This document shows, piece after piece, positions 374-28,873 of a stretch of DNA of 64,000 nucleotides; position 1 is the first letter of the stretch, and every line of letters starts with the position of its first letter. The stretch comes from an uncultured Sulfitobacter sp. (GTDB lineage: Bacteria > Pseudomonadota > Alphaproteobacteria > Rhodobacterales > Rhodobacteraceae), in contig NZ_CANMFS010000007.1 in the NCBI RefSeq assembly GCF_947497275.1, positions 80,955 to 144,954 on the forward strand. Reading direction: 5' to 3'. The notes below the pieces were generated by a model. That model ran no database searches and was not told the DNA's origin. It was given only the letters and a program-made list of their open reading frames with translations. The position numbers were made by a program, and so were the translations under genes.

Positions 374-440
374 ACTCTTGTATCGGCCCCTGCGGGCGGT
401 GCATGGTACGCCGACGCAATTTGCAACGAAGAGAAATCTC

Positions 441-1475: not shown

Positions 1476-1483
1476 CCCGCCTA

Positions 1484-2456: not shown

Positions 2457-2857
2457 ATGTCCGTCACGCAGAGTAAGGTCCGTGTCTCCGAAACGAGTAC
2501 TGTCAAATGTGCCAAGTTCTTAACCCCGATTTACAAATCCGCCAAGGGCCGTGTGCTAATCAATTTTTTGTTCATTTGCACCCAATACGTCAACCTTTGA
2601 ACGTCAAGAGCGTAACACGGCACGCCGGGAGGGACCGCAGGCAATGACATGGTTGCCTGACGATAAGGAGCGGCAACGGGTTCGAACAGGCATGGAAAAA
2701 ATGGACCGTAACATGTTCAGATCAGTGCGGCGCGCTGTCGCCGCACCGCCGAAACCGAAACGACCGGGTGCGTCAATTTCGCTGTGGACATTGTTTCGAG
2801 GCGGGCTTTACCTTGTGCCGTCGCGCTCTAACTAAGGCGCAAGAAGAGGAGAATATT

Positions 2858-3331
2858 ATGAGACTATTCGCAGCAACAGCACTCGGCATGGCGCTCGCCG
2901 CCGCACCAGCCTTCGCAGACGAACACGCGAGCGGCGATGCGCAAGCAGGCGAAAAAGTGTTCAACAAGTGCAAGGCGTGCCACGTCATCACCGACGCCGA
3001 CGGCGAAACGATCGTCAAGGGCGGTCGCACCGGTCCGAATCTTTACGGAATCTACAACCGCACGGCCGGCTCTGTCGAAGACTTCCGCTATGGCGATTCG
3101 CTCGTTGAAGCTGGCGAGAACGGCCTTGAGTGGAACGAAGAAGAATTCGCAGGCTATGTCGCCGATCCCAAAGGTTTTCTGGCCGAATACAATGACGACA
3201 CGCGCGCACGCTCGAAAATGTCGTTCAAACTGCGTGACGATGAAGAAGCCAAGAACGTCTGGGCTTATCTTGTATCGGTCGGCCCCGAAGTCGAAATGGA
3301 TGAGGAAGAAGAAACCGGCAGCGACAGCTGA
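2858..3331 (+). CDS. cycA: Periplasmic cytochrome c2 (class I c-type) with signal peptide and acidic tail
   Basis: Signal peptide MRLFAATALGMALAAAPAFA; GDAQAGEKVFNKCKACH heme motif; TGPNLYG; KMSFKL Met ligand. Confidence 0.88.
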   Translation: MRLFAATALGMALAAAPAFADEHASGDAQAGEKVFNKCKACHVITDADGETIVKGGRTGPNLYGIYNRTAGSVEDFRYGDSLVEAGENGLEWNEEEFAGYVADPKGFLAEYNDDTRARSKMSFKLRDDEEAKNVWAYLVSVGPEVEMDEEEETGSDS

Positions 3332-3359
3332 TTTTCTTCGCATGTCGATGATCAACAAG

Positions 3360-3386
3360 GGCGGCACCCCGAGGGTGTCGCCTTTT
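3360..3386 (+). terminator. Rho-independent terminator after cycA
   Basis: Stem ggcggcaccc/gggtgtcgcc followed by tttt. Confidence 0.75.
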
Positions 3387-3504
3387 CTATTGAATCTGGC
3401 AGCGCCCAAGCCCCTGCCCTTTGCGGCTACCGGAGCCGCACTTCAAGTATCGCTTACATTTTCCCTCTTTGGCGAACCGACAGTGAAGCGGCTTTCCCGT
3501 GCCG

Positions 3505-4398
3505 TCACCCCGACGTTTTCCGCCCTTTTAACGCCTCGAAGCCGATAATTACATCCAAAAGCTCGGTCGTGATCTCATCCTGCCGCACCGTGCGCGTTTC
3601 CGACATCAACGCATCCAGCCGGTCATCCACGGATTGCTCGGCCTGTTGCATTAACGCAAGCCGCGCGGCGTTCTCGGTGACAAGGGCTTCGGCCGCAGCC
3701 CTGAACAGGCTTGCAAACAGATGTCCGCGGATCAGCGCCACAAACAAATCCCCCGATTCCATGGTATAATGCGGCAGGCTGCGCGAAACCCACGGTGTGC
3801 TTTGCAGCTCCTGCACCAACCCGGGGTCAAGCGGCAGTAACGGCGCGACGACGGGTGCCCGCATTCCGCCCTCGCTGCGCGCGAAATACGCCAGCGACAC
3901 GGCAACCTCGCGCGGAAGATGACGCGTGCGCAGATCATCGAGCCGCCGGGTCAGCAGATTGGCGAGCCGCCCGATGCCATCGACGGACGCCGGAGGAAAA
4001 AGTGCCTTTTCGACGTCGATCCCTTGATCAGCAAGGGCATCCGCCATCCGCGCGCCGATGCACAGGACAGTCTGCACGCGACCCGGCGCGCTGCCGATGG
4101 TGCGCGCAACATGGTGGGCCAGGGCTTCGTTGTAGTTGCCGCACAACCCGTGATCAGAACCGAAGACGACCATAACCCGCGCCGCCGCTGCACCGCGCGC
4201 GGCGTGCACCGGCCCCGTTTGCGAAAGAAATGCGTGCAGCCCCTCCAGAACTGTCGCGTGATACGCCTCGATGGCGCGGGCGGCGTGTTCATAGGGGGCG
4301 GCGTTAATGACTGACAGTGTTTTCATCGTGTGCACCACACTGCGGATGCCCGTCATGCTGGTCGTGCGCCGGGCCAGCGCCTCAAGGGTCTGGGTCAT
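3505..4398 (-). CDS. atpG: N-type ATPase F1 gamma subunit
   Basis: [51 protein letters not shown]; start MTQTLE at 4398. Confidence 0.92.
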
Positions 4399-5920
4399 GC
4401 GACTTTTCCAGATTTTCCAGCGCCAGCGCGCCAAGTGCCGCCATCCGCGCCCGCGCGGCATCGTCAAAGGGCACATTCTGCGCGATCTGCCCGGCGATAT
4501 CGTCAAGGTCGCGCGCGGCGGCCTGACGGACCGCATGCATCGCTGACTGCATGCGGGCCTCGTCCAGCCCGTCGAACTGTCCATCCATCGCCGCGATCAG
4601 AACGGCAAGCTGTTCGACCGCCGGGATCGGATCGCGTTCGGCCTGCCGCAGCGACAACCGCACCGCCGCGCCGCGTTTCAACCGCGCGCGCGTCGCATCG
4701 TCAAGCCGGGTGCCGAACCGCGCGAAATCCTCCAGCTCTTCGAACTGCGAAAGGGTCACGCGCAGGTTTCCCGCCACCGACCGGAACGCGCGGCTTTGCG
4801 CCTTGCCCCCCACCCGGCTGACCGACACTCCTAGATCCACCGCCGGAAACTGGTTCTTGCGGACCAGACGCGGCGACAGATAGATCTGTCCGTCGGTGAT
4901 CGAAATGAGGTTGGTCGGGATATAGGCCGACAGGTTTTCCGCCTGCGTCTCGACGACCGGCAGGACGGTGATGGACCCGCCGCCGATCGACGGGGCGAAC
5001 TGGCCCGCACGTTCAAGAAGCCGTGCGTGAATGTAGAAGATATCGCCTGGAAACGCCTCGCGCCCCGGCGGTCGGCGCAGCAGCAGCGACAGTTCCCGAT
5101 ACGACCGGGCGTGGTGCGTCATATCGTCCAGCACCACCAGAACATCGCGGCCCTGCGCTGCAAACTGCTCGGCCATCGTCATCGCGGCGTAGGGCGCAAT
5201 ATAGGCAAGCCCCGCCGCCCCCTCGTCGCCCGCCGCCACGATCACCGTGCGCCCCATCATCCCACCGTCGCGCACCGCGCCAATGACCTTGGCCACCGCA
5301 TCGCCGCGCTGCCCTATGGCGCAGTAGATACAGATGACATCGGTGTCCTTCTGGTTCAGGATCGCATCCACCGCGACCGAGGTCTTGCCGGTCTGCCGGT
5401 CCCCGATCACCAGTTGCCGCTGTCCCAACCCGATGGGGACCGCCGCATCTATCGCCTTGATCCCCGTCGCCAGCGGGCGGGTGATGGCCTTGCGGTCAAG
5501 GATATCGGGCGCTTGCGCCTCTACGGGGTGCCGCGCATCCGCCTTGATCGGCCCGCCGTCGTCCTGCGGATGTCCCAGGGCATCCACCACCCGGCCCAGC
5601 AACCCTGCGCCGACCTGCGTACTCACCACCCTGTGCGTCCGCATCACCCGTTCCCCCACGACGATATCCGCCGACGGCCCCAGCAGCACGACGCCCAGCC
5701 GCCCCGGTTCCAGATCCAACACGATGCCCTGCACGCCACAGGCAAACTGCAAAAGCTCATCCGAAAGCGCGCGCGCCAATCCCGTCACGACGGCAATCCC
5801 GTCGGCCACCTCGGCCACCTGCCCGACCTCGCTGATGCGGGGCGGCGGTGCGGGACTGTCCAGCAGCGCCCGGACAAGCGTCTCGGGATGCGGCCGCAGT
5901 ATCCTGATATCATTGTCCAT
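4382..5920 (-). CDS. atpA: N-type ATPase F1 alpha subunit
   Basis: GDRQTGKT Walker [32 protein letters not shown]; start set at MDNDIR (5920). Confidence 0.95.
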
Positions 5921-6680
5921 GCGAAGCAGGTTCCAGATCGCCACCACCGGCCAGCCGCGCGGTGATCGACGCGTCCAGCCCGTCGACGTAGGACTCGACC
6001 GTCCAGGCCAGCTGCGCCCCGCCCATGCGCATCACCAGACCGGGCGACTGATCCGCATCCGTTTCAAATTCGACGGTCACACCGGTAAACGCCGCCGCGA
6101 TTGCGCTACGCAGCGTTTCGCGCACATCCGAACCAAGCGGCGCGCGGCTTGAAATCACGGCCTCCGTCGCCTGTCCCGCAGCGGTGCGCAAATCAGCCGC
6201 CACTGTCTCGATCCTTGCGATCAGGTGCCGTGCCACCCGTTCCTCGAACGTGTCGTCCGCCAGATCCGTCAGCGCCTTGCGCGTGAGCGACAACAGCGCA
6301 TCGGCCCCGATGTCCTGCAATCTCGCAGCATATTTTTTCGCTTCCGCCGCCAGCTGCGCCTGCCAGCCGGCCTGCTCCTGCTCCATCGCCGCGCGGGCGT
6401 CCGCCAGCAGGGTGTCGCGCTGTTCCTCGGCCTTACGGCGCACCGTCTCCATCATATCCGCCTGCGCCACGTTCAGCGCCCGCAACTTTTCCTCATAGGC
6501 CTCTTCGCGCGCCTTCGCCGCTTCCTTCACCGTCTCCGCCTCGCGCATGCGGGCGGTGATTTCCGCCTCGCGGGCGTCGATCCCGTCAAGAATGGGCCGG
6601 TACAGGAACCGCTTGAGCAGCCACACGAGCACCAGAAAATTGGCGATCTGTGCCGCGACAGTGATCCAGTCGATGGACAC
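5910..6680 (-). CDS. atpF: N-type ATPase F0 b subunit (long form with C-terminal delta-like extension)
   Basis: [32 protein letters not shown]-terminal TM, coiled coil, 256 aa; no separate atpH in the operon. Confidence 0.9.
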
Positions 6681-6683
6681 GGG

Positions 6684-6971
6684 TCAGTTCCCTGCGCCCT
6701 GCGCCGCTTCCAGCGCGGCAATCCAGAACGGATTGGCAAAGATCAGGATCATCGCAACGACAAAGCAATAGATCGCCGTGGATTCGATCATTGCAAGGCT
6801 CACGAACAGGGTGCGCGAAATGGTCGGTGCCGCATCGGGCTGCTGCGCGATGGAGTTCAACGCAGTCGATGCCGCGCGCCCCTCGCCAAGCGCGGGACCG
6901 ATGGCGCCGATGGAAACGGTCAGCCCGGCGGTAAAGATCGAGATGCCGGCGATAAGTCCAAGGTCTGTCAT
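6684..6971 (-). CDS. atpE: N-type ATPase F0 c subunit
   Basis: GxGxGxG-like GAIGPALGEG, AQQPDA loop, AMIESTAIY ion-binding motif. Confidence 0.95.
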   Translation of the reverse strand: MTDLGLIAGISIFTAGLTVSIGAIGPALGEGRAASTALNSIAQQPDAAPTISRTLFVSLAMIESTAIYCFVVAMILIFANPFWIAALEAAQGAGN

Positions 6972-7663
6972 GGATTGTCCTTTTCGGAATGGGAAGGGGG
7001 CGGCGGTGCGGTCGCGCTGGAAATATAGACCGTCGCGAGGATCGCGAAGATATAGGCCTGGATCATGCCGGTCAGCAGGCCCAACACGTCCATCACCACC
7101 GGAAAGAAGAACGGCGCGACGCTAAGCAGGATCGCGGCGATCACCGCCCCGCTCATGATGTTGCCGTAAAGGCGGATGGCCAGAGAGACGCCGCGCGAAA
7201 ACTCCGAGATGATGTTGAACGGAAGCATGACGACCGACGGCTGCACATAGGTCTTGAGGTATCCGCCGATGCCCCGGTTCGACACGCCGAACATCGGCAC
7301 AGCGATCAGAACCGACAGCGCCAGCGCCGTGGTGGTCGACAGCGACGATGTCGGCGGCTCGAACCCCGGCACGACCAGCAGCAGGTTCGACACGGCAACG
7401 AACAGAAATAGCGTCCCCGCGAAATACAGCAGATGGCGCGACGGCCCGGGTGCGATCTCTGCGATCTGGCTCTGGATGCCCTGCACGATCACCTCCAGCG
7501 TCGTGCGCCAGCGGTTGGGCGGCACATCCGGGCGCAGCCTGCGCGTGATCAGCATTGAAGCCACCGTCAGCAACGCCATCACGATCCAGGTATAGAAAAC
7601 CGTCGCGTTGATCGCGACGCCCGCAAGCTCGAACATGATGATTTGATCGGGGGTGAGGGTCAT
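6968..7663 (-). CDS. atpB: N-type ATPase F0 a subunit
   Basis: Hydrophobic protein; SLAIRLYGNIMSG containing the conserved Arg; GMIQAYIFAILATVYI. Confidence 0.93.
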   Translation of the reverse strand: MTLTPDQIIMFELAGVAINATVFYTWIVMALLTVASMLITRRLRPDVPPNRWRTTLEVIVQGIQSQIAEIAPGPSRHLLYFAGTLFLFVAVSNLLLVVPGFEPPTSSLSTTTALALSVLIAVPMFGVSNRGIGGYLKTYVQPSVVMLPFNIISEFSRGVSLAIRLYGNIMSGAVIAAILLSVAPFFFPVVMDVLGLLTGMIQAYIFAILATVYISSATAPPPPSHSEKDNP

Positions 7664-7947
7664 GGAGCGTCACCGGCACGGACCAATGTGATCGCGCCCA
7701 TTCGCACCACGAGAAACGCAAGCGCAAAGCCCGCGAACGCCCAGACGCCGCCCTGCTGCACCACGCCCCACCCCGCTGCGAGCAATACCGCAATGCGCAA
7801 CGCGGCGCTTAGCGCCAGAAAACCGACCGGCGTGCGCGTGCGCAGGGCGAGCCGCATGCCAACCTTCAGCCCGGCAAAGAACAGGACGCTGAGCACGGCA
7901 CCAATCGCCAGACCGCCCGCAACCGCCGCCCAGTCAACCTCTGTCAT
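7660..7947 (-). CDS. atpR: N-ATPase AtpR-like small membrane subunit
   Basis: 95 aa hydrophobic, FFAGL..G, SAALR motifs; position between atpQ and atpB is diagnostic of N-ATPase operons. Confidence 0.75.
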   Translation of the reverse strand: MTEVDWAAVAGGLAIGAVLSVLFFAGLKVGMRLALRTRTPVGFLALSAALRIAVLLAAGWGVVQQGGVWAFAGFALAFLVVRMGAITLVRAGDAP

Positions 7948-8227
7948 TTGTCACCTCCTTCTCTGCCGACCCATGCCGCTGCAATGAAAGCGCCCAGAAC
8001 GACGCCCCCGAGGATCAGCGCGATTGTCCATGAAAACCCCTGCGGTGCCACCCGGTCCAGCCAAAGACCCAGAAACGCGCCGCCCACCGTGGGCACCGCG
8101 ATGGACCAACCGATCATCCCGAAAGTGCCGATGCCGCGCAGCGGACTTGGTCCCGGATCATCGCGGCGCGCCTTCATGCGGCGGGCCTGCCGCGCGATTT
8201 CTTCGGTGGATCTGTCGGGTTTCGGTG

Positions 8228-8231
<4 letters not shown>
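7944..8231 (-). CDS. atpQ: N-ATPase AtpQ (ATPase gene 1/AtpZ family)
   Basis: GMIGWSIAVPTVGGAFLGLWLDR motif; two TM helices; operon position. Confidence 0.8.
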
Positions 8232-10949
<2,718 letters not shown>

Positions 10950-11008
10950 ATCAGACCTCCCCTTTCACGGCATCTGTCAGACCACTACTGTGAAACATGC
11001 ATCTGCCC

Positions 11009-12253
11009 TCAGACCGGGTCGCGCATGGTGGGACAGCTCATGCAATGACCGCCGCCGCGTCCCCGGCCCAACTCGGCCCCGGGAATCGCCAGCACCTCGA
11101 TGCCTGCCGCCTTCAGCGCGGCGTTGGTGTCATCGTTGCGGTCGTAGCCGATCACCAAACCGGGCCGCAGGGCGAGCACGTTGTTGCCGTCGTTCCATTG
11201 CTCGCGCGCGCGCTCTTCGGCGGTCTCACCACCCGTGGGCACAATCTGGAGGGACTTGTATCCCAGCACTTCCGCCACGATGTCGAAGATCGGGCGCGGA
11301 TCGTGTCGGTATTGCAAAGGCTCCGCGCCCTCGCCGGGGCGAATGTCGTAGCACACCAGCGCGTCCGCGACCTCCTTGAAGGTCGTCACAACGTCTCCGC
11401 CGCACAGCGTGAACACCGTGTCCAGATGCATCGCCGCGCGCGATTTCGGCATCGCAAATGCCAGAACCCGCTGCGCCGCACCGGTATCGAACAGCGCCTC
11501 GGCCAATTGCCCGACGCCCTGCGGCGAAGACCGCTCGCCCATGCCGACCAGCACCGTACCGTCACCCACAGGCATGATATCGCCCCCCTCGACCGTCGCC
11601 AGACCGTGGTCGGTTGTGGGATCACCCCAGTGCACCGTCGTCTTCCCAGCGAATTTCGGATGAAACCTGTAGATCGCTGCGTTCAAGAGCGTCTCCGGCC
11701 TGCGGGCGGGCCAGTACATCGGATTGACGGACACGCCGCCAAAGATCCACGCCGAATTGTCGCGGGTGAACAGGGCGTTCGGCAGCGGCGGCAGGATAAA
11801 CCCATGCGCGCCCAGATAGCTGCCGAACAGCCCCGAAGGCACGAACGGCAGATCATCCACTGCCAGCCCGCCCAGCAGAAATTCCGCCAGCTGCGCACCG
11901 GGTAACACATCCAGCCACGCGCGCAACTCCGCGCCCATCCCGACACCGATCTGGTCCGGTCCCAACCTGTGATCAAGGATCCACGCGCGCCCTTCGGGAA
12001 TGTCCACCGTCTCGGCCAACAGCGTATTGACGTCCAGAACCTCGACGCCCTCGCCGCGCATCGCGGCCACGAAAGCCGCGTGATCCTTCTGTGCCTGCTT
12101 GACCCAGAACACATCGTCGAACAACAGCGACTGGCAGTTGGCCGGGGTCAGCCGCCTGTGCGCCAGACCGGGCCGGCACACGATGACCTGCCGCAACCTG
12201 CCGGTTTCTGAATGGACCCCCAATGTGCCGGACGCGGCTGTATCTGACGGCAT
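11009..12253 (-). CDS. arcA: Arginine deiminase
   Basis: [45 protein letters not shown] containing the catalytic Cys; RBS aggag. Confidence 0.96.
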
Positions 12254-12346
12254 CTGACTGTCTCCTGCTGATCAAGTTGCGTCCGCGTGCCCACCCTTGG
12301 GGCGCGTGGCCTGCGCACTGAATGACACCGCGCCGCAGCGCCCGCA

Positions 12347-12360
12347 TTGACGTAGGTCAA
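12347..12360. promoter_or_regulatory. FNR/FnrL/FixK-type binding site TTGAC-N4-GTCAA in the arcA / MaoC-pta divergent region
   Basis: ttgacgtaggtcaa, a symmetric match to TTGA-N6-TCAA. Confidence 0.75.
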
Positions 12361-12534
12361 TCACCGGCCACCGTTGGCCGCTAGTCAGGCGAAAACCTGA
12401 TCGCAGGGGTGCCCGCGTGCTCCGGTCAGGCGGCTGTGCGCCGCGCGATTGATCTGATAGAAACACCGGGTGCGCATCGCGCGCTTCGACACACGCAGGA
12501 CTCCGCAAGACCCCGAACCCAAAGGCAGACACAG

Positions 12535-13932
12535 ATGCAATTCATCGAAAACAGAACCTACGAAGAAATCGAGATCGGCGAGACGGCAGAGCTGACGCGC
12601 ACACTGAAGCCCGAAGATATCGAGATGTTCGCGGTCATGTCGGGCGATGTGAACCCCGCGCACGTCGATTCCGCCTATGCCCGTTCGGACATGTTCCACA
12701 AGGTCATCGCCCACGGCATGTGGGGCGGTGCCTTGATATCTGCCGTGCTGGGCACCGAACTTCCCGGTCCGGGTACCATCTACCTCAATCAGAACCTGAA
12801 CTTTCGCCACCCCGTCGGACTGAACGACACCGTGACGATCCGTGTCACCGTGACAGCAAAGGACGATGCGCAGCATCATGTCGCGCTCGACTGCCTGTGC
12901 CTGAACCAGACCGGCGAGACGGTGATCGAAGGGCAGGCAACCGTTATCGCACCGACGGTCAAGGTACGCCGCCCCCGCGTGGCCCTTCCCGAAGTGCACC
13001 TGCACGAACGGGGCGCACGGTTCAACGAGCTGATCGATGCGACGGCGGCGCTTGATCCGGTGCGCACGGCGGTCGTGCACCCCTGCGATGCCCTCTCGCT
13101 CGAAGGTGCATTGGAAGCGGGCGCGCGCGGGCTGATCGTGCCGGTCCTGATCGGACCAAGGGCCAGGATCGACGCCGTCGCCACCGAGATCGGGCGCGAC
13201 CTGTCGGGCGTTGAGGTCGTCGATGTGCCCCACAGCCATGCCGCCGCCGAACGTGCGGTCGCACTTGGCCGCGCCGGTGACGTCCACATGTTGATGAAAG
13301 GCAAGATTCATACCGACGAGTTGCTCAACCCGGTCGTAAACCGCGACACCGGTCTGCGCACCGAACGCCGGATGAGCCATGTCTTCGTGCTGGACGTGCC
13401 GAACTATCCCAAACCGCTGCTGATCAGCGACGCCGCGATCAACATCTTTCCCGACCTGCCGACCAAACGCGATATCGTGCAGAACGCGATCGAGCTCGCC
13501 CACGCGCTCGGCATCACTATACCCAAGGTCGCGATCCTGTCGGCGGTCGAAACGGTCACGCCCGACATCCCCTCGACAATCGACGCCGCCGCCCTGTGCA
13601 AGATGGCGATGCGCGGCCAGATCACCGGCGGCGTTCTCGACGGGCCGCTGGCCATCGACAACGCCGTGTCCATGGCGGCGGCGCAAACCAAGGGGATCGA
13701 ATCGCAGGTGGCGGGCCAGGCCGATATCCTGATCGTACCCGATCTGGATGCCGGCAACATGGTGGCCAAACAACTGATTTATCTGGCCGGGGCCGATGCG
13801 GCAGGCCTGGTTCTGGGCGCGCGTATTCCGATCGTGCTGACCAGCAGGGCCGACGGCGTCATGTCACGCCTCGCATCTGCGGCGATGGCACAGCTCTATG
13901 TCCACCACCACACCGGCGGACATCGGACATGA
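12535..13932 (+). CDS. Bifunctional MaoC-like (R)-enoyl-CoA hydratase / phosphate acetyl(butyryl)transferase
   Basis: N-terminal FAVMSGDVNPAH..IAHGMWGG hotdog motif; C-terminal LMKGKIHT, DAAINIFP, LDGPLAIDNA, LVLGARIPIVLTSRAD. Confidence 0.9.
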   Translation: MQFIENRTYEEIEIGETAELTRTLKPEDIEMFAVMSGDVNPAHVDSAYARSDMFHKVIAHGMWGGALISAVLGTELPGPGTIYLNQNLNFRHPVGLNDTVTIRVTVTAKDDAQHHVALDCLCLNQTGETVIEGQATVIAPTVKVRRPRVALPEVHLHERGARFNELIDATAALDPVRTAVVHPCDALSLEGALEAGARGLIVPVLIGPRARIDAVATEIGRDLSGVEVVDVPHSHAAAERAVALGRAGDVHMLMKGKIHTDELLNPVVNRDTGLRTERRMSHVFVLDVPNYPKPLLISDAAINIFPDLPTKRDIVQNAIELAHALGITIPKVAILSAVETVTPDIPSTIDAAALCKMAMRGQITGGVLDGPLAIDNAVSMAAAQTKGIESQVAGQADILIVPDLDAGNMVAKQLIYLAGADAAGLVLGARIPIVLTSRADGVMSRLASAAMAQLYVHHHTGGHRT

Positions 13933-15104
13933 ACGGCGTCTACCTCACGCTCAATGCCGGATCGTCGAGCCTGAAATTCGCACTGTTCGACAGCGCCGCG
14001 TCATCGGCGGATCCCCTGCTCAAGGGCACCGTCGCGGGAGTTGGCGGAACCCCTGCCTTTACCGCGCGTGGGGCGGATGGCGCAAAAATCGACACCGGCG
14101 TCGCACTGGACGGCGCCAGCGACCATGCGGAGGTGATCGCGCGGCTGCTGCCGTGGCTCGCGGCGCAGCACGCGGGCCGCCCGCTTCTGGCGGTCGGACA
14201 TCGCGTGGTGCACGGCGGACAGCATTTCCCCGAGCCCACCCGCATCACGCCCCCCGTGCTGGCACAGCTTCAGGACCTCGCCCCCCTCGCCCCGCTGCAC
14301 CAGCATCACAATCTTGCCGCCATCCGCGCGGTTGCACAGCGCGAACCCGACGTGCCGCAGATCGCCTGTTTCGACACCAGCTTTCACCGCACGCAGAGCC
14401 ATCTGGCGCAACAGTTCGCCCTGCCCCGCACGCTGACCGACCAAGGCATCATTCGCTACGGCTTTCACGGGCTGTCCTACGATTATATCGCAAGCACCCT
14501 GCCCGAACATCTGCAAGACGGCGCCGATGGCCGTGTTGTCGTTGCCCATCTTGGCAACGGATCCAGCATGTGCGCCCTGCACGCCCGTAAAAGCGTGGCG
14601 ACCACAATGGGCTTCACCGCGCTGGACGGCCTGATGATGGGCAGCCGCTGCGGCACCCTGGATCCCGGTGTCATCCTGCACCTGATCCAGCACGAAGGGA
14701 TGCGCGCGGACGAGATCGAAACCCTGCTCTACACCCGGTCCGGCCTGCTGGGCGTGTCCGGCACGAGCAACGACATGTACGTTTTGCAAAACACCGATAC
14801 CGCCTCCGCCCGCGATGCGATCGACATGTTCTGCTACCGCGCCGCTTGCGGGCTTGCCGGGCTGGTGCCGTCGATCGGCGGATTGGACGCGCTGGTCTTT
14901 ACCGCCGGGATCGGTGAGAACTCCGCGCTGGTGCGCACGAAAATCTGCGGATGGCTCGATTGGCTGGGCGTTTCGCTGGACGATGTCGCGAACGACCAAG
15001 CCGCGACAGTGATCAGCGCGGCATCCTCACGGGTGAAGGTTCTGGTCGTCCCAACCAACGAAGAGGCGGTCGTCGCCCGTGCATGCCGCGCGCTCGTGCG
15101 CTGA
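13929..15104 (+). CDS. ackA: Acetate/propionate kinase
   Basis: LNAGSSSLKF, GHRVVHGG, PLAPLH, ACFDTSFH, RYGFHGLSY, HLGNGSS, FTAGIGENS, PTNEE; ATGA overlap with the upstream gene. Confidence 0.95.
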   Translation: MNGVYLTLNAGSSSLKFALFDSAASSADPLLKGTVAGVGGTPAFTARGADGAKIDTGVALDGASDHAEVIARLLPWLAAQHAGRPLLAVGHRVVHGGQHFPEPTRITPPVLAQLQDLAPLAPLHQHHNLAAIRAVAQREPDVPQIACFDTSFHRTQSHLAQQFALPRTLTDQGIIRYGFHGLSYDYIASTLPEHLQDGADGRVVVAHLGNGSSMCALHARKSVATTMGFTALDGLMMGSRCGTLDPGVILHLIQHEGMRADEIETLLYTRSGLLGVSGTSNDMYVLQNTDTASARDAIDMFCYRAACGLAGLVPSIGGLDALVFTAGIGENSALVRTKICGWLDWLGVSLDDVANDQAATVISAASSRVKVLVVPTNEEAVVARACRALVR

Positions 15105-15115
15105 TCCACCGCAAA

Positions 15116-15694
15116 TCACGGGTTTGGTGTACCCCCAGACGACGATTGATGCGCGCGGTATCCGACGGCATCCCCGTATTCCAGAAAATCGGCATAGTGA
15201 CGATGCACGCCCGCCATGCGCTTTGCGTGTTTGATCGGACACCATCGCTTTTCCGTCCGCGCCGCAATCTCGGCCGCATACCCCAGCAACCCGTTGCCAT
15301 AGGCGCAATACATGCAGTTGAGCTTTTCCAGCCCGTTGAGATACGACAGATGCCTGCGGTCAAAGGTGATGAAATCCGACCGCCTGACCTTTTCGATGCC
15401 GTAGGCCGGAAAGCAGACCGCCTGATAAACCGACACGAACAGATCGAGCAGAACAAACGGCACGATGATCGAATAGATCACCGGCGCCGTCAGAACCACC
15501 GAAAGCCGCGCACCGGCAAGGTACGACGACAGCTTCTGTTTCAGCGCCCGGTGCTGCGCCTGCGCCTCGCGTTCGAACTCGATCCTGCGGTCCTTGATCC
15601 GAAAGCGCAGCTTCTCGCGCCGCCGCTCGAACTCCTGCTCCAGCTCTTCTTCCAAAGCGCGGATTCGCGCGACGATCTCACCGGCCTTGTCCAT
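15116..15694 (-). CDS. Hypothetical membrane protein with coiled-coil N-terminus and Cys/His-rich C-terminus
   Basis: MDKAGEIVARIRALEEELEQ..., hydrophobic segment, LNCMYCAYGNG and WCPIKH motifs; start set at ATG 15694. Confidence 0.75.
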   Translation of the reverse strand: MDKAGEIVARIRALEEELEQEFERRREKLRFRIKDRRIEFEREAQAQHRALKQKLSSYLAGARLSVVLTAPVIYSIIVPFVLLDLFVSVYQAVCFPAYGIEKVRRSDFITFDRRHLSYLNGLEKLNCMYCAYGNGLLGYAAEIAARTEKRWCPIKHAKRMAGVHRHYADFLEYGDAVGYRAHQSSSGGTPNP

Positions 15695-15756
15695 TCTCCG
15701 ACAGTCTCCTTTGCCTGCGCTTGCAACAGCACCCGCGCCAATCGTGCCCTGCGCGT

Positions 15757-16239
15757 CTATCCGCCGGACGACTGGTCGATCTGCATCGAGATGAATGCGG
15801 GCTCGCCCATCCGGTCGAGCAAGGACAGCTGCAACTCCAGCCACGACATATGGCCCTCTTCGTCCAGCGCCGTGCGTTCGAACAGATCGCGAGTGCCGAT
15901 GTCGCGCGCTTCGTCCGCCGTGCGTGCGGCAGTTGTGTAAAATTCAATCGCCTCTCTCTCATCCGCCAGATCCGCCTCGAACATCTTCTTGAGAGACCCG
16001 GCCGCCTGCGGCACCTTGGCCGCCTTCAACTCCGGAGTGCCACCCAGAAACACGATACGTTCGGCGTATTGCTCGGCGTGGCCAAGCTCTTCGAGCATTT
16101 CGGCCCGCATCTTGGTCGCCAGCTTGTCCAGCCCCCAACTGTCCGCCGTCAGGATGTGCAGCAGGTATTGGTTCACTGCCGCCAGTTCCATCGCCACCGC
16201 TGTTTGCAGGTTGCTAAGCGTTTCGGTCTTCTGTGCCAT
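15757..16239 (-). CDS. bfr: Bacterioferritin-family protein (ferroxidase ligands present, heme-ligand Met apparently replaced)
   Basis: MELAAVNQYLLH..WGL, EMLEELGHAEQYAERIVFLGG, DEREAI, DEEGH. Confidence 0.85.
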   Translation of the reverse strand: MAQKTETLSNLQTAVAMELAAVNQYLLHILTADSWGLDKLATKMRAEMLEELGHAEQYAERIVFLGGTPELKAAKVPQAAGSLKKMFEADLADEREAIEFYTTAARTADEARDIGTRDLFERTALDEEGHMSWLELQLSLLDRMGEPAFISMQIDQSSGG

Positions 16240-16287
16240 CGGCTTTCCTTTCATCTGTCTTCTAAATCTGTCATTTACCCGCCCGTC

Positions 16288-16851
16288 TCATTCGCTCCAC
16301 GGATGTACATGCACATCGCGCCCCGAATGGCCTTTCAGGATCTTCACGGCGAACGCTTCCTTGTCGGCATCGGAGGTCCTCACCCACAGCAGGATACCAC
16401 CCTGCGCGATCTGGTCGGCGTAGTAATCCTTGTGGTGCCGGTCCACGCGGCGCGCCAGCAGCGCACCCAGAATACCGGCCGGACCACCCCCGATCGCGAT
16501 CGCCGCAATCGACGCGGCCAATGTCGCCGCCGGGGTCAGCATCGCCGCCATCGCGATATAGGATCCCAAAAAGAAAAAGCCACCCGCGATAGCGCCCTCC
16601 AACTCGCCCATCGCCTCTTCCGAGACAAAGGCCGCGCGCGGCGCATCCGGGTTGTCTTCCAGATCTTTGGCCTGCCAATAGGCAGAGCCAAGCTTTTCTT
16701 TCATCGCTTCTCTGTCGCCCAGCAGGCTGATGTCCGCACGGCTGAATCCGGACATGCGCAGATCATAGATCGCGGTCTGAAGGTCCTCGAAACTGTCGAA
16801 TACGCCGACGGCCTCGGGGACGTTGATGAATGTTGCTTTCTCTTGGGTCAT
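16288..16851 (-). CDS. Hypothetical general-stress-type membrane protein (YflT/glycine-zipper-like)
   Basis: AVGVFDS..LQTAIYDLRMSGFSRADISLL N-terminus, Ala/Gly-rich hydrophobic hairpin, GGILLWVRT C-terminus. Confidence 0.65.
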   Translation of the reverse strand: MTQEKATFINVPEAVGVFDSFEDLQTAIYDLRMSGFSRADISLLGDREAMKEKLGSAYWQAKDLEDNPDAPRAAFVSEEAMGELEGAIAGGFFFLGSYIAMAAMLTPAATLAASIAAIAIGGGPAGILGALLARRVDRHHKDYYADQIAQGGILLWVRTSDADKEAFAVKILKGHSGRDVHVHPWSE

Positions 16852-16892
16852 TTCATGCCTCGGTTGGGTTTGGTATCCGTCTCGACATGTCG

Positions 16893-17237
16893 TCAGCCCT
16901 CCGGCCCCGACATCCAGATCGCGTAGCGGGGGTCGTTTTCCAAAAGCCGCACCCGCCGCTTCAACGCCGCGTTTTCCTGGACAAGCGACAGCACCAGCGC
17001 CACACCCGGCACATTAAGCCGCAGATCGGCCTGAAGCCGCTGCACCTTGCGTACCACGGTGATGCTGGTGCTTTCGAACCGCCAGACGGTGCGGCTTTCG
17101 CCCACAGGCTCCAGAATGCCTTCCTCGACCAGTTCGATCAACCAGTCCGCCGATGACCCGCACACCCGGCACAGGTCCGACAGGCTCAGCGGTTTGACGA
17201 TCTCGCCCGCTGGCACGAGCGCCGTTGATTTAGCCAT
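16893..17237 (-). CDS. cbpM: Chaperone modulator CbpM (MerR-like HTH)
   Basis: LSLSDLCRVCG..WLIELVEEGILEP, RLQADLRLNVPGVALVLSL; directly after cbpA. Confidence 0.85.
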   Translation of the reverse strand: MAKSTALVPAGEIVKPLSLSDLCRVCGSSADWLIELVEEGILEPVGESRTVWRFESTSITVVRKVQRLQADLRLNVPGVALVLSLVQENAALKRRVRLLENDPRYAIWMSGPEG

Positions 17238-17240
17238 CGT

Positions 17241-18212
17241 TCATGCTCCCAGTCTGGCGCGAGGGTCGAAATCCATCTCGCGCGCCATCTCTTCGTACAA
17301 CTCCTTGGCCCGCGCGCTTTCCACCGGCGGGATGACGATCTTGAGCACCGCAAACAGATCGCCCGCGCGCTTGCCCGGTATGCCGCGCCCCTTCAGCCGC
17401 AGCTTCTTGCCCGTCTGCGCATGTTTCGGGATCGTCAGTTCCACGGTGCCGCTTGGTGTCGGCACACTGATCCGTGCGCCCAGTGCGGCTTCCCACGGGG
17501 CGATGGGCAGATCCATGAAAACATCCCTGCCCTCGACGCGGTAGGCCGGGTCGTCCCTGATCGCCACCTCCAGGTAGAGATCCCCCGGCTTGCCCCCGCC
17601 CATCCCGGCAGAGCCTTTGCCCGACAGGCGGATATGCTGGCCTTCGGTCACACCCTTCGGGATCGAGACGCGGATGGTACGTTCACGCAAAACAACATGC
17701 CCGTCGGGATCAAGCTCGGGCGCGCGCAAGGTAAAATCACGCGTCCCGCCCTGATAGGCTTCGAGCAGGTCGATGACGATCTTGGCATGATGGTCCTGCC
17801 CCGGCGCGCTGAACTGATGGCCCTGCCGCATGTGCGGTGACGGTCCACCGCGCTGCCTGCCCTGCCGCGCGAACAATTCGTCAAAGAACGATCCGAACCC
17901 GCTCGGATCGGCCTCGGTATAGCCGCCGCCGGAAAATTCAAAACCCTCGTCCCAATCGGGCGGCGGATTGAACGACTGTCCCTCTTTCCAGTTGGCACCC
18001 AACTGATCGTAGGCGGCGCGCTTTTCGGGGTCCTGCAACACCTCGTAGGCCTCGCCGACATCCTTGAACATCCGCTCCGCCTCTGCGGCGTCCGGCCCGG
18101 TGTTCACGTCCGGATGGTATTTGCGCACAAGTTTGCGGTAGGCACGCTTGATCTCGTCCTGCGGTGCAGTCCGCTCGACACCCAGTATCTTGTAGTAGTC
18201 CTTGTATTCCAT
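17241..18212 (-). CDS. cbpA: DnaJ-class co-chaperone / curved DNA-binding protein CbpA
   Basis: MEYKDYYKILGV, KYHPD J-domain, G/F-rich linker, no zinc finger, C-terminal GDLYL/GRGIPG. Confidence 0.92.
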   Translation of the reverse strand: MEYKDYYKILGVERTAPQDEIKRAYRKLVRKYHPDVNTGPDAAEAERMFKDVGEAYEVLQDPEKRAAYDQLGANWKEGQSFNPPPDWDEGFEFSGGGYTEADPSGFGSFFDELFARQGRQRGGPSPHMRQGHQFSAPGQDHHAKIVIDLLEAYQGGTRDFTLRAPELDPDGHVVLRERTIRVSIPKGVTEGQHIRLSGKGSAGMGGGKPGDLYLEVAIRDDPAYRVEGRDVFMDLPIAPWEAALGARISVPTPSGTVELTIPKHAQTGKKLRLKGRGIPGKRAGDLFAVLKIVIPPVESARAKELYEEMAREMDFDPRARLGA

Positions 18213-18335
18213 TGCTCAACGGATCTCCGCACGCCCTGACGGCGGATGACTGGTACACGTGCCGCTCACCTGCCATGGGACGCTGTTCGATGTGTCCACG
18301 ATAAACCAGCGATACCACGAAACCAGACCGCCGAA

Positions 18336-18349
18336 TTGATAAACCGCAA
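18336..18349. promoter_or_regulatory. FNR/FixK-like site TTGAT-N4-CGCAA between cbpA and the antiporter
   Basis: ttgataaaccgcaa; one perfect half-site, the other half 3/5. Confidence 0.5.
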
Positions 18350-18464
18350 CTGATCCGTGCTTATCACCGGCGTCGCGCCGACCTGTTGCATATATTTTCA
18401 CGCGCATCGCGCCCCGGCCCCGTTTTACCGGTGCGCCCGCCCGATGATATGCTATCCCGACGAC

Positions 18465-20969
18465 ATGGACATCATTCTGATCACGACCGTCATCGCGGCC
18501 CTGTTTCTTGTCATCGGCGTGGCCGAGCCGTTGGCCGCGCGGTTGCGCCTGCCCTACAGCGTCATTTTGGCCCTCGTGGGCATCTTGATCGCGGCGGGCG
18601 CGTTGTTTTTCCTGCGCACCGAGCTGACCGATGCGCTCAACCCCGTGGCCGAGGCGATCCTCGGCCTGCCGATCCGGTCGAATGTGTTCCTGTACGTCTT
18701 TCTGCCGACGCTGCTGTTTCAGGCCACCCTCGGCATGAACCTGCGCCGTATGCTGGACGACTGGGTGCCGATCCTCGTTCTGGCCGTCGTCGCGGTGGTC
18801 GTGGCGACGCTTGCCGTCGGATATGCCCTGTCTTGGACAAGCACCCTGCCGCTGGCCGCCTGTCTGCTGATAGGCGCCATCGTGTCCACCACCGATCCGT
18901 CCGCCGTGGTGTCGATCTTCCGCTCCATTTCCGCGCCCCGCCGCCTTGCCCGCATCATCGAGGGCGAAAGCCTGCTGAACGACGCGGCGGCCATTGCGCT
19001 TTTCGGCCTGTTCATGGGGTTCGTGATGCTGGGCATCCCCGATCCCACGCTCAGAGATGCGCTGGCGCGGTTTCCGCTGCTGATCGCAGGCGGCGCGGTT
19101 GTCGGCTGGATCGCCGCGCGCTGTGCTGTCTGGCTGATGGCCGCCTTTGCGCGCTACGAACTGGCACAAATCTCCATTTCCGTCTCCCTGCCCTACCTCG
19201 CCTACATCCTTGCCGAACAAAGCATCGGTGCCTCCGGCGTAATCGCAGTGGTCGCCGCCGGTCTGACCCTCAACCTCACAGGTCCGGGCCGCCTTCCGCC
19301 GCAGGCCTGGACCAACCTGCGCGAGCTGTGGGACATCCTCGCCCACTGGGCCGGCGCGTTGATCTTCATCCTCGCCGCCCTGCTGATCCCGCGCCTGCTC
19401 GAAGAGGTACGCATCGGCGACATAGCCCTCGTCGCCGTCGTGGTGCTGGCTGCCATCGCCGCCCGCGTGATCATCCTGTTCGGTCTGCTGCCACTGCTGA
19501 CCGCGCTGCGCTTGTCGCCAGCGGTCGAGCGACCCTACCGCGTGGCGATCCTATGGGGAGGCCTGCGCGGAGCCGTTACGCTGGCGCTGGCGCTCGCCGT
19601 CACCGAAAGCTTCCGCGTCCCGGTCGAGGTCAAGCGACTCGTCGGCATCCTCGCCACGGGTTTCACGCTGTTCACGCTGGTCGTACAGGGGACCACGCTG
19701 CGCTCGGTCATCCGCTGGCTCGGGCTTGATCGCCTGTCGCCGCTCGACGAAGCCCTCTCGCGCCAGATCGTCGCCGTCGCCCTTCAAACCGTACGCGAGG
19801 ATGTCGCGCGCACCACTGAAAACTATGACCTGACCCACGATATCGTCCGCTCCGAGGCCAAACGGTTCGGCGAAAGGCTCGATGCGGCGGTGAAATCAGC
19901 CGAGGAAAACGTCGACATTCTCGACCGCGACAAGATCACACTGGGGCTGATCGCTCTGGCCGGACACGAGCGTGACACGATCCTCGCCCGCGTGCGCGAA
20001 CGGACGATCTCGGCGCGCATGGCCGAACAGGTACTACCGGACGCCGACCGCCTGATCGAAGGCGCGCGGTCGGACGGGCGAAACGGCTACCAGCGCGCGG
20101 CCCGGCGCAGCGTCGCCTACGGGCGCGGCCTGCGCGCCGCCGTGGTGCTGCACAGCCGCCTGCGCCTGTCCGGTCCGCTCGCCCGTATGACCGCCGACCG
20201 GTTCGAGCTTTTGCTATCGCAGCGGCTGGTCCTGCGCGATCTGGGCGCGTTCATCGACGGGCGCATCCGCCGCATCCACGGCCGCCGCGTCGCGGACCTG
20301 CTCCACGATCTGCTGTCGCGCCGGATTGAAACGGTAGAGACGGTACTCGAAGGGATGCGGCTGCAATACCCCGGTTACGCAGAAGAGCTCGAACGCCGCT
20401 TCATCCGCCGCACCGCTTTGCGGCTCGAAGAACGCGAATACGCCACCATGCGCGAGGATGGCCTGATCGGCGCTGAGGTTCATACCAAGCTGATGGAGGA
20501 CCTGAATGCGCGGCGCGCCGCCGCCGAACTGCGCCCGCGTCTCGACATCGCGCTCCAGCGGATCGAACTCGCCCGCCAATTCCCCCTGTTCGCCGATCTT
20601 GACGCCGCCGGTCTCAAGCGGTTGGGGCGGGTGTTCCAGACCCGATACGTCAACGCGGGCGACACCGTCATCAGCAAGGACAGCCCGGCCAGGCAGGTGT
20701 TCTTCATCGCCTCCGGCGCGGTCGAACTGGAAACCGCCGGGCAGACGTGGCGGCTGGGCGGTGGCGAGATGTTCGGCCAGATGGCCATTTTGATGAAACG
20801 CGCCCGCCGCACCGAGGTCCGTGCCATCGCGCCTTCGACCCTGCTGGTGCTGGATGAAACACGGTTCCGCCGGCTGCTCGACCGCAGCAAGACCCTGCAA
20901 AAGGCCGTGCGCGCCAGTGCGGAAAAACGCGGTATCGAACCCGATGCTTTCCTGCTGACTGAACGCTAA
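18465..20969 (+). CDS. CPA1-family Na+/H+ antiporter with long cytoplasmic region and C-terminal cyclic-nucleotide-binding domain
   Basis: FLPTLLF, GAIVSTTDPSAV, IIEGESLLNDAAAI, WGGLRGAVTLALAL; C-terminal FPLFADL..VFFIASGAV..GEMFGQMAIL..RRTEVRA. Confidence 0.9.
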   Translation: MDIILITTVIAALFLVIGVAEPLAARLRLPYSVILALVGILIAAGALFFLRTELTDALNPVAEAILGLPIRSNVFLYVFLPTLLFQATLGMNLRRMLDDWVPILVLAVVAVVVATLAVGYALSWTSTLPLAACLLIGAIVSTTDPSAVVSIFRSISAPRRLARIIEGESLLNDAAAIALFGLFMGFVMLGIPDPTLRDALARFPLLIAGGAVVGWIAARCAVWLMAAFARYELAQISISVSLPYLAYILAEQSIGASGVIAVVAAGLTLNLTGPGRLPPQAWTNLRELWDILAHWAGALIFILAALLIPRLLEEVRIGDIALVAVVVLAAIAARVIILFGLLPLLTALRLSPAVERPYRVAILWGGLRGAVTLALALAVTESFRVPVEVKRLVGILATGFTLFTLVVQGTTLRSVIRWLGLDRLSPLDEALSRQIVAVALQTVREDVARTTENYDLTHDIVRSEAKRFGERLDAAVKSAEENVDILDRDKITLGLIALAGHERDTILARVRERTISARMAEQVLPDADRLIEGARSDGRNGYQRAARRSVAYGRGLRAAVVLHSRLRLSGPLARMTADRFELLLSQRLVLRDLGAFIDGRIRRIHGRRVADLLHDLLSRRIETVETVLEGMRLQYPGYAEELERRFIRRTALRLEEREYATMREDGLIGAEVHTKLMEDLNARRAAAELRPRLDIALQRIELARQFPLFADLDAAGLKRLGRVFQTRYVNAGDTVISKDSPARQVFFIASGAVELETAGQTWRLGGGEMFGQMAILMKRARRTEVRAIAPSTLLVLDETRFRRLLDRSKTLQKAVRASAEKRGIEPDAFLLTER

Positions 20970-21259
20970 ACCCCGTCGATGAGGATATCCAACGCGCGTT
21001 TCAGCGCGTCCCGGTGCGCGTCCAGCGATCCCACCCGCTCGCGCAATTCCGATCCGGTCACCGCCGCAAGCTCCATCACCCGCACGATCCAGATCTGGCC
21101 GTCTACCTCCACTTCCGGCGTCAGGCCGGGAAACGCGGCATACCGATCCGCCGCCCGCAGCGGTGCTACGACACGCGATGCGTCGATCCCGATCAGATCC
21201 GTCTGAAGATCCACGACAAGCTGCCCACCGGTCAGGCGGTATACGTCAAACTGCGCCAT
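20966..21259 (-). CDS. ccdB: CcdB-family toxin
   Basis: MAQFDVYR, VVDLQTDL, RVVAPL, LTPEV, ALDILIDGV C-terminus. Confidence 0.88.
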   Translation of the reverse strand: MAQFDVYRLTGGQLVVDLQTDLIGIDASRVVAPLRAADRYAAFPGLTPEVEVDGQIWIVRVMELAAVTGSELRERVGSLDAHRDALKRALDILIDGV

Positions 21260-21266
21260 GCCGCGC

Positions 21267-21488
21267 CTAGAAGCTTCTGTACTGTGCCAATGGTAAACCG
21301 TCCCGGTCCACCTCTTCGCCGTAGGCCGCGATCGCCGCCTGGTTTTCCAACCGCCACAAGCGGTTGCGTTCGGTCTTGGCCGCCTCAAGGATTGCCGCTT
21401 CGGCAAGGCGCGACATGTTCAGGCCCAGCGTGCGCGCCGTTTCCGCGACATCCGCATCCAATGTCAAATTCACTTTCACGCGTCCCAT
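21267..21488 (-). CDS. ccdA: CcdA-family antitoxin
   Basis: KVNLTLD..ARTLGLNMS ribbon-helix-helix; WRLENQAAIAAY..GLPLAQYRSF. Confidence 0.9.
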   Translation of the reverse strand: MGRVKVNLTLDADVAETARTLGLNMSRLAEAAILEAAKTERNRLWRLENQAAIAAYGEEVDRDGLPLAQYRSF

Positions 21489-28872: not shown

Positions 28873-28873
28873 G

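Follow-up and report, generated by a model that had tools for sequence, protein, structure and literature searches.

Operons of the Pseudomonas aeruginosa arcDABC type are controlled by ANR/FNR and supply ATP from arginine under anaerobic conditions. Here we describe a 64,000-nucleotide stretch of a contig from an uncultured Sulfitobacter sp. (NZ_CANMFS010000007.1, positions 80,955 to 144,954; hereafter the window) in which two genes of this arginine deiminase (ADI) pathway, arcA and arcC, stand directly upstream of an operon for an N-ATPase and share a spacer with a divergent acyltransferase-kinase gene pair. N-ATPases, a widespread class defined in 2010, are always found beside a normal F-ATPase and have been argued to act as ion pumps that do not synthesize ATP (PMC2881411). 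The only N-ATPase c-ring studied biochemically, that of B. pseudomallei, is H+-specific, and a role in acid stress has been proposed; the same 2017 study termed the cellular function of N-ATPases "largely unexplored" (PMC5376962). For the acyltransferase-kinase pair, a phaC-fabI-"bi-pta"-ackA synteny has been noted in the Halomonadaceae, in Cobetia and Halomonas (PMC8686332). In Dinoroseobacter shibae, a marine roseobacter, Crp/Fnr regulators control plasmid genes, and the Na+ gradient has been implicated in anaerobic adaptation (Ebert et al. 2017, PMC5398030). Our literature searches found no paper holding both "N-ATPase" and "arginine deiminase" and nothing relevant on roseobacter arc genes with ATP synthase or on N-type ATPases with anaerobic conditions, and the N-ATPase papers PMC2881411 and PMC4154653 mention neither arginine nor carbamate. 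A fusion of ADI genes to an N-ATPase operon under FNR-type boxes was not found described; all of its components are of known kinds, and taken as a whole the plasmid region is ordinary accessory DNA.

Positions 3505 to 20969 of the window had been read in a first-pass annotation as one coherent, possibly mobile 17.5-kb cassette for survival of anoxia and salt, built of four transcription units in two divergent pairs, each with an FNR-like box. The four units and two divergent pairs fit the gene orientation and the 4-bp overlaps or short gaps between genes, and every gene named in that annotation was recovered in Pfam and NCBIfam profile searches of the window's open reading frames (ORFs), scored against family cut-offs. 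The single cassette did not stand. We conclude that the region is probably a mosaic on a roseobacter RepB-type plasmid, with a left half that is a trimmed low-oxygen module coupling substrate-level phosphorylation to the N-ATPase. The best-supported account of this left half (3505-15104) is that it would be a trimmed copy of a conserved divergent operon pair, one that has departed from the consensus by three or more separate losses. It comprises the following features.

3505..4398, minus strand: atpG, gamma subunit, last gene of unit 1 (Pfam ATP-synt, 2e-39; start taken as the Met before the Pfam match)
4382..5947, minus strand: atpA, alpha subunit (Pfam ATP-synt_ab, 7.8e-76, plus N- and C-terminal domains; start codon uncertain)
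5910..6680, minus strand: atpF, long b subunit of 256 residues (ATP-synt_B, 3.4e-10; sub-threshold OSCP match over residues 120-236)
6684..6971, minus strand: atpE, c subunit (TIGR03322 alt_F1F0_F0_C, 141.5 against a cut-off of 130.85)
6968..7663, minus strand: atpB, a subunit (Pfam ATP-synt_A, 5.6e-43)
7660..7947, minus strand: atpR, N-ATPase-specific membrane subunit (Pfam PF12966 AtpR, 28.8 bits against a cut-off of 26)
7944..8231, minus strand: atpQ (Pfam PF09527 ATPase_gene1, 2e-10; 41 bits against a cut-off of 26.6)
8228..8638, minus strand: atpC, epsilon subunit (Pfam ATP-synt_DE_N, 4.5e-16)
8635..10029, minus strand: atpD, beta subunit (TIGR03305 alt_F1F0_F1_bet, 728.9, just below the cut-off of 752)
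10026..10949, minus strand: arcC, carbamate kinase (NF009008, 433, cut-off 361; TIGR00746, 367.5, cut-off 358)
11009..12253, minus strand: arcA, arginine deiminase, first gene of unit 1 (Pfam ADI, 5.8e-112, full length)
12347..12360, no strand: FNR/Dnr/ANR-type palindrome TTGACGTAGGTCAA in the arcA/maoC-pta spacer, a perfect TTGAY-N4-RTCAA match
12535..13932, plus strand: bifunctional MaoC enoyl-CoA hydratase/phosphate acyltransferase, Ptb-like Pta (NF006045, 760 against 282; Pfam MaoC_dehydratas and PTA_PTB)
13929..15104, plus strand: ack, acetate/propionate-family kinase (TIGR00016, 347.9 against 293.4; Pfam Acetate_kinase, 3e-106)

The nine consecutive minus-strand genes at 3505-10029 follow the N-ATPase order atpDCQRBEFAG, with no separate delta gene (atpH/OSCP) in the operon and a delta-like C terminus on the long b subunit. 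The c subunit carries the Na+-binding signature as defined in PMC2881411, a Glu in both helices plus ESTxxY, here in the segments GPALGEG and IESTAIY. Gene order, AtpR and AtpQ, and this signature bear out the annotation of the operon as that of an N-ATPase, and from the c-subunit motif the enzyme probably exports Na+. The atpD start overlaps the arcC stop by 4 bp, in a compact run from arcA to atpG whose genes have 4-bp overlaps or intervals of no more than 59 bp; the 64-kb window holds no second atp operon.

Species-representative genomes were scanned with ArcA, giving 80 arcA loci with 10-kb flanks, against which all island proteins were run by tblastn; the source species is not among them. 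The arcA genes of these loci are 75-89% identical to that of the window, the best relatives reaching 88-89%; a look-up of the exact ArcA protein returned no entry. The conserved core in the relatives consists of two divergent operons, ack-maoC/pta-fabI-phaC on one side and yfcC-arcA-arcB-arcC-atpDCQRBEFAG on the other, each headed by its own box. The window has the reduced order ack-maoC/pta and arcA-arcC-N-ATPase, diverging from one box. In 24 of the 80 loci the N-ATPase operon begins 0-76 nt after arcC. These fused loci include Roseovarius, Sulfitobacter, Litorivita, Phaeobacter, Yoonia, Lentibacter, and Palleronia, and occur as well in Hoeflea sp. AS16 (Rhizobiales) and in three Marinobacter (Gammaproteobacteria), from which it follows that the arc-N-ATPase unit moves horizontally. 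On plasmid pRA02 of Roseicitreum antarcticum the order is YfcC-arcA-argF-arcC-HdeD-N-ATPase, and IS256-family and IS21-like genes flank this segment on both sides at distances of up to about 10 kb, separated from it by other genes. The pairing of the arcA and pta-ack operons as divergent units, as first annotated, thus recurs in relatives and has FNR-type boxes there. In the synteny comparison on which the annotation had rested its test of independent assortment, units 1 and 2 stay together, and units 3 and 4, in the right half of the region, assort independently.

Two further loci bear on the history of this arrangement. The Sulfitobacter SK012 plasmid appears once to have had the arc-N-ATPase fusion and then to have lost its arc genes; at 14806-15042 of this locus (L083), the 78-residue "hypothetical protein" encoded ahead of atpD is what is left of the arcC C terminus, and the FNR box is retained. 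In Hoeflea marina (L030, 1764-13166), a distant N-ATPase operon with 37-66% subunit identity lies upstream of yfcC-arcABC and has its own FNR box before atpD, which looks like an independent juxtaposition of ADI and N-ATPase functions.

The first-pass annotation had assigned ATP generation to ArcA and ArcC. Both genes are present in the window, and the remainder of the pathway is not. Only 59 bp, with no arcB, separate arcA from arcC in the window, against about 1 kb in 70 of the 72 related loci that have both genes, a segment identified in one of them (L001) as arcB; arcB was detected in 76 of the 80 loci. A tblastn search of the 64 kb with the ornithine carbamoyltransferase of that locus gave no match, and no homologue of an arginine/ornithine transporter of the ArcD/YfcC type is present in the window, where 43 of the 80 relatives have a gene for a YfcC/DcuC-family carrier upstream of arcA. 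Because arcB is missing, ArcA and ArcC would give no ATP without an external ornithine carbamoyltransferase. This enzyme could plausibly be provided in trans, by a second arc locus or by argF on the chromosome, since two arc loci occur together in the genomes of some relatives (L002 and L068 in one case, L010 and L078 in another). When the 59-bp junction was aligned with the relatives, only the arcA and arcC ends matched, and the gene losses are clean.

The arcB-less layout is shared by a close strain represented by seawater metagenome contigs from two studies, about 98.4% identical to the window. These contigs are colinear with it across 2500-17582 with zero indels. Mis-assembly as the source of the layout was ruled out, as independent metagenome contigs reproduce it without indels. 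Between the window and this strain, arcA differs by 15 synonymous and 3 nonsynonymous changes and arcC by 6 and 2, so that 21 of the 26 pooled coding differences are synonymous and 5 are nonsynonymous; arcA and arcC are under purifying selection. In one metagenome contig (run X3), position 11770 runs directly into 12093, so that 322 bp of arcA are missing and the frame would shift. Only 35 nt lie on one side of the join; the contig might represent a subpopulation in which arcA is inactivated.

The Pta/Ack assignment was confirmed, both genes scoring above their family cut-offs. The MaoC-Pta ORF opens at 12409, and the homologues and the NCBIfam alignment place the likely true ATG at 12535 (MQFIENRTY). 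In relatives these genes belong to an operon that encodes a PhaC-type synthase (Pfam PhaC_N), FabI, MaoC/Pta, and the kinase, and in 15 of the 80 loci this module is found no more than 10 kb from arcA; phaC and fabI are absent from the 64-kb window. In Roseovarius amoyensis (L015) ack-maoC/pta-fabI-phaC and yfcC-arcABC-N-ATPase diverge from a shared spacer with two boxes, one directed toward each operon, and on the SK012 plasmid the module is likewise divergent, there from the N-ATPase operon. The phaC operon has its own FNR-type box, about 160-215 nt upstream of phaC, in L001, L010, L015, L022, and SK012. One possibility is that the roseobacter phaC-fabI-pta-ack cluster would convert polyhydroxybutyrate (PHB) to acyl-phosphate anaerobically.

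The claim of an FNR-like box for each divergent pair held for one pair only. The window has two perfect TTGAY-N4-RTCAA boxes, where 0.17 are expected. From the center of the 12347 box the distance is 100 bp to the ATG of arcA and 181 bp to that of pta. In 49 of 77 relatives, nearly all the close ones among them, the homologous operon is likewise preceded by a perfect box, which lies there about 1.6 kb upstream of arcA, ahead of the transporter gene. A TGTCA element 18-19 nt downstream of the window box is common to many of these relatives. Because the box and the TGTCA spacing are shared, the 12347 box looks like the same promoter minus the transporter gene; in a BLAST search, the arcA upstream spacer matched the relatives only in the box and at the coding ends. 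FNR boxes also precede N-ATPase operons that stand alone in Pseudorhodobacter turbinis, that follow the arcC remnant on the SK012 plasmid, and that occur in Hoeflea marina.

The second proposed box is the following element of the cbpA/nhaP spacer.

18336..18349, no strand: proposed second FNR-like box TTGATAAACCGCAA, with two mismatches; not supported

The window has 83 two-mismatch FNR-like sites where 51 are expected, a density of about one per 770 bp, and one in the 253-bp cbpA/nhaP spacer is therefore unremarkable. An alignment of the region upstream of cbpA with L017 and L028, the two relatives that have cbpA-cbpM, showed no conserved element, and no EcfG general-stress promoter motif was found upstream of cbpA. 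The other perfect FNR-type box, TTGATCGTCGTCAA at 22961-22974, falls within codons 5-9 of the minus-strand aldehyde dehydrogenase gene at 21607-22986 and could be a repressor site or due to chance. The window contains no Crp/Fnr regulator gene. Some relatives (L025 and L026 at about 4900-8400; L084 at 877-1602) have Crp/Fnr-family regulators, a CBS-domain protein, and HdeD (DUF308) in or beside the arc/N-ATPase neighborhood.

These observations suggest the following mechanism. When oxygen drops, an FNR/Dnr-type regulator, presumably encoded outside the window, would bind 12347-12360 and activate the arcA operon with class II-like geometry from a predicted start near 12312, with pta-ack as a possible second target. 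ATP would then come from substrate-level phosphorylation by carbamate kinase and the acyl kinase, the citrulline-to-carbamoyl-phosphate step and arginine uptake being supplied by genes elsewhere in the genome, and the N-ATPase, which we infer to be cotranscribed, would spend this ATP to expel Na+ or H+, keeping up the membrane potential and a sodium gradient when respiration stops. Such coupling of ATP to an ion pump would make physiological sense for respiratory marine bacteria that meet transient anoxia, and it accords with the indications from D. shibae that plasmid genes and a Na+ gradient are important under anaerobic conditions (PMC5398030). The right half holds a stress-type operon that is no more than an occasional arc neighbor and an independently assorting antiporter, perhaps regulated by its own cyclic-nucleotide-binding domain (CNBD).

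The right half consists of unit 3, on the minus strand, and unit 4, a single gene on the plus strand.

15116..15694, minus strand: orf192, unknown membrane protein with a Cys-rich C terminus, last gene of unit 3 (no Pfam match)
15757..16254, minus strand: bacterioferritin-like ferritin (Pfam Ferritin, 7e-31; TIGR00754, 110 against a cut-off of 125.6)
16288..16851, minus strand: orf187, unknown membrane protein (only a weak match to the YflT general-stress domain, E = 0.0023, below threshold)
16893..17237, minus strand: cbpM-like MerR_2 chaperone modulator (Pfam MerR_2, 1.8e-19; NF007617, 61 against a cut-off of 138)
17241..18212, minus strand: cbpA-like DnaJ-class cochaperone (Pfam DnaJ, 1e-26, and DnaJ_C, 2.6e-41; no zinc finger; NF007618, 249 against 403)
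18465..20969, plus strand: CPA1/NhaP antiporter with a C-terminal cyclic-nucleotide (cNMP)-binding domain (Na_H_Exchanger, 3.8e-48; cNMP_binding, 7.9e-15)

The genes annotated for unit 3 are all there, and two more, orf187 and orf192, had been overlooked. The annotated bacterioferritin is bacterioferritin-like: the protein is a ferritin that retains the ferroxidase Glu and His residues and is 34% identical to E. coli Bfr; it scores below the bacterioferritin cut-off and has Leu at the position of the heme ligand Met52. The CbpA/CbpM pair fits in architecture and gene order, with both scores below the equivalog cut-offs. orf192 has a coiled-coil N terminus and a Cys-rich C terminus with CMYCAYGNG...WCPIKH, and orf187 a weakly YflT-like N terminus and a glycine-zipper membrane segment. 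The antiporter has both the exchanger and the nucleotide-binding domain, in agreement with the first reading; its start is likely ATG 18465 and not GTG 18357, a length that fits the 837-residue homologues.

Linkage of unit 3 to arc is occasional. Genes of the cbpA-cbpM-orf187-bfr set lie near arcA in 5 of the 80 loci, in varying arrangements; the same order stands beside arcA only in Aliiroseovarius L017, and parts of it occur in the four others. In L017, orf187 has its own FNR box, and at 16179-18619 a 70% identical orf192 homologue lies downstream of an FtsH paralogue, overlapping the stop of the latter. orf187 adjoins bfr in L017, L025, and L026 and is solitary in a Paracoccus plasmid. The antiporter lies within 10 kb of arcA in none of the 80 loci. 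In a second set, of 80 metagenome contigs centered on NhaP-CNBD at 77-87% identity, none of the cbpA, cbpM, orf187, bfr, orf192, arc, and N-ATPase genes was found. The sole link found between the antiporter and another island module is contig L115, in which (13127-15708) the antiporter is followed directly by maoC/pta-ack; on plasmids of Qingshengfaniella and Alloyangia its neighbors are polysaccharide genes or a replication module. The divergent pairing of units 3 and 4 appears specific to the plasmid lineage of the window.

The location on a plasmid-type replicon was borne out by a Rep_3 initiator, 70-77% identical to plasmid initiators of Sulfitobacter and Pseudosulfitobacter, together with ParA, ParB, CcdAB, and a GC-skew switch near 32 kb. 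Both borders of the block are as first described, a cycA terminator on the left and ccdAB on the right.

3357..3391, plus strand: intrinsic terminator hairpin after cycA, left border (13-bp GC-rich stem followed by the T-run TTTTCTATT)
20966-21259, minus strand: ccdB, right border (Pfam CcdB PF01845, 1e-18)
21267-21488, minus strand: ccdA, right border (Pfam CcdA PF07362, 1.3e-20)

Consensus scans for terminators and promoters gave counts equal to background; the cycA hairpin was missed by the scan and was revealed by folding (z = -3.5 for 3325-3510). The adjacent CcdA and CcdB domains identify a toxin-antitoxin pair. Searches for direct or inverted repeats bordering the 17.5-kb block found only short ones at chance level, and no transposase, integrase, or insertion sequence (IS) is among the genes annotated across 378-30211. 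A search for near-identical plasmids returned no record covering more than 17% of the block, and the layout is common only to the 98.4% identical strain. An Rfam scan of the window gave zero matches. On the left, hemE (uroporphyrinogen decarboxylase), idi (isopentenyl-diphosphate isomerase), and cycA (cytochrome c2-like) lie on the same replicon at 378-3331, which suggests a chromid-like element with housekeeping or photosynthesis-related genes. On the right, 23071-30211 holds a PAS-rich HWE histidine kinase (832 residues) and an RND efflux pair (an AcrB-like protein of 1,040 residues and a membrane-fusion protein), as well as an FNR-like site with one mismatch at 23180.

The flanking genes were recovered at high depth in two seawater metatranscriptomes, cycA at 108-156 and the aldehyde dehydrogenase gene at 90-94, and the island genes only as fragments with a depth of 0-7; three further metatranscriptomes yielded nothing for the region. 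The pattern fits an island that was not expressed in those samples and is transcribed independently of the genes around it. One arcA RNA contig extends to 12281, within the predicted 5' untranslated region and consistent with a start near 12312.

Could the whole 17.5 kb nonetheless be one coherent, possibly mobile anoxia and salt survival cassette, its four units coregulated through two FNR boxes? We consider this very improbable. Its functions are thematically compatible, all four units share the low depth between high flanks in the two metatranscriptomes, cbpA/cbpM or orf187/bfr lie near arc in 5 of 80 loci, one of these with its own FNR box at orf187, and the L115 contig places nhaP against maoC/pta-ack. 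Thematic coherence of neighboring genes is not evidence of a cassette, however, and half of this "island" assorts independently: none of the 80 arcA loci has the antiporter nearby, none of the 80 antiporter-centered contigs has cbpA, bfr, arc, or N-ATPase genes, and the antiporter is found in unrelated plasmid contexts. The second box is at chance level, flanking repeats, IS, and integrase were not found in the searches above, and no relative carries the block as a unit. The single-cassette explanation is thus largely refuted by what synteny indicates.

Two other explanations concern the left half itself, and both seem to us unlikely. The left half could be a decaying remnant in which arcA, arcC, and pta-ack are no longer working pathways and have become passengers upstream of or beside the N-ATPase. 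The three or more separate losses would fit such decay, as would the SK012 plasmid, a further stage with only an arcC remnant before atpD, and the possible 322-bp arcA deletion variant in one metagenome; yet all ORFs are intact, synonymous differences in arcA and arcC outnumber nonsynonymous ones by 21 to 5, the promoter box and the TGTCA element are kept, and the two arc loci of some relatives make trans complementation plausible. The ADI pathway is also a classic acid-stress system, which counts for a link to the N-ATPase through pH or ammonium handling, for example by offsetting alkalinization by NH3; in a variant, the enzyme would synthesize ATP from the Na+ gradient in place of ATP-driven Na+ export. 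The HdeD acid-resistance-family gene between arcC and atpD on pRA02 points the same way, as does the B. pseudomallei N-ATPase, a proton pump with a proposed acid-stress role (PMC5376962). Against this explanation, which we give little credence, stand the complete ESTxxY and Glu Na+ signature of the c subunit, the invariable presence of N-ATPases beside a normal F-ATPase and the argument that they do not synthesize ATP (PMC2881411), and a conserved control element that is an oxygen-type FNR box and not an acid-response element. The mosaic with a trimmed low-oxygen module, which we prefer, has evidence weighing against it as well. With arcB and the transporter missing, an ATP yield from arginine hinges on genes outside the window; part of the population may carry the 322-bp arcA deletion, although its support of 35 nt on one side is weak; and at 181 nt from the pta ATG the 12347 box has an uncertain role for pta-ack. 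The 80 arcA loci share ancestry, so that the counts overstate independent events, and the metatranscriptome evidence, being at contig level, demonstrates presence and cannot prove absence. The Na+ specificity in the window is a prediction from a motif, while the B. pseudomallei ring is H+-specific.

Beyond this plasmid, we tentatively propose, as a possibility somewhat short of even, that the N-ATPase of marine Rhodobacterales, and by transfer that of some Marinobacter and Hoeflea, is a member of an FNR/Dnr low-oxygen regulon, tied, often within a single operon, to the ADI module and to the PhaC-FabI-MaoC/Ptb-kinase module, the latter possibly fermenting PHB, and that it turns fermentative ATP into sodium-motive force in anoxia. 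If true, this would be the first physiological assignment for the N-ATPase class based on genomic context. The repeated fusion to ADI genes and the low-oxygen-type boxes before both fused and stand-alone copies make it a testable hypothesis for the role of the enzyme. It is also relevant to the survival of aerobic marine heterotrophs during transient anoxia on particles, in sediments, and in algal blooms, and to the question of why plasmids carry such traits.

The systems described elsewhere match parts of the region to different degrees. As in E. coli cbpAM, the CbpM-like gene, of the MerR_2 type, comes immediately after the gene for a J-domain protein that lacks a zinc finger; unlike in E. 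coli, three more genes follow (orf187, the ferritin gene, and orf192), and both window proteins score below the NCBIfam equivalog cut-offs. With the ANR/FNR-controlled arcDABC operon of the P. aeruginosa type the window shares arcA and arcC, an upstream box of the TTGAC-N4-GTCAA type, and an expected anaerobic ATP role. It differs from that operon in having neither arcB nor a transporter gene and in the nine ATPase genes appended, and the carrier of the relatives is of the YfcC/DcuC family, not ArcD. The FnrL/Dnr plasmid regulons of D. shibae (PMC5398030) likewise belong to a marine roseobacter and have a site of the TTGAT-N4-ATCAA type. The antiporter under Dnr control there (DnrE or DnrF, depending on the passage) is Pha/Mrp, not NhaP-CNBD, the word "arginine" gave no hit in the text of that paper, its one mention of ATPase concerns decreased ATPase formation, and no D. 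shibae sequence was identified among the matches to the window. The Halomonadaceae cluster (PMC8686332) has the same bifunctional MaoC/phosphate acyltransferase gene followed by an acetate/propionate kinase gene, and its full phaC-fabI-pta-ack order recurs in the roseobacter relatives; the window copy differs in lacking phaC and fabI, and the roseobacter cluster differs in being divergent from the arc/N-ATPase operon and in having its own FNR-type box. The closest agreement is with the N-ATPases of Dibrova et al. (2010, PMC2881411), in gene order, AtpR and AtpQ, the missing delta gene, the long b subunit, and the c-subunit motif, and also in being plasmid-borne, as in the Acaryochloris and Synechococcus PCC 7002 examples. 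What sets the present operon apart from those, together with its counterparts in 24 of the 80 related loci, is its fusion downstream of ADI-pathway genes with an FNR-type box at the head.

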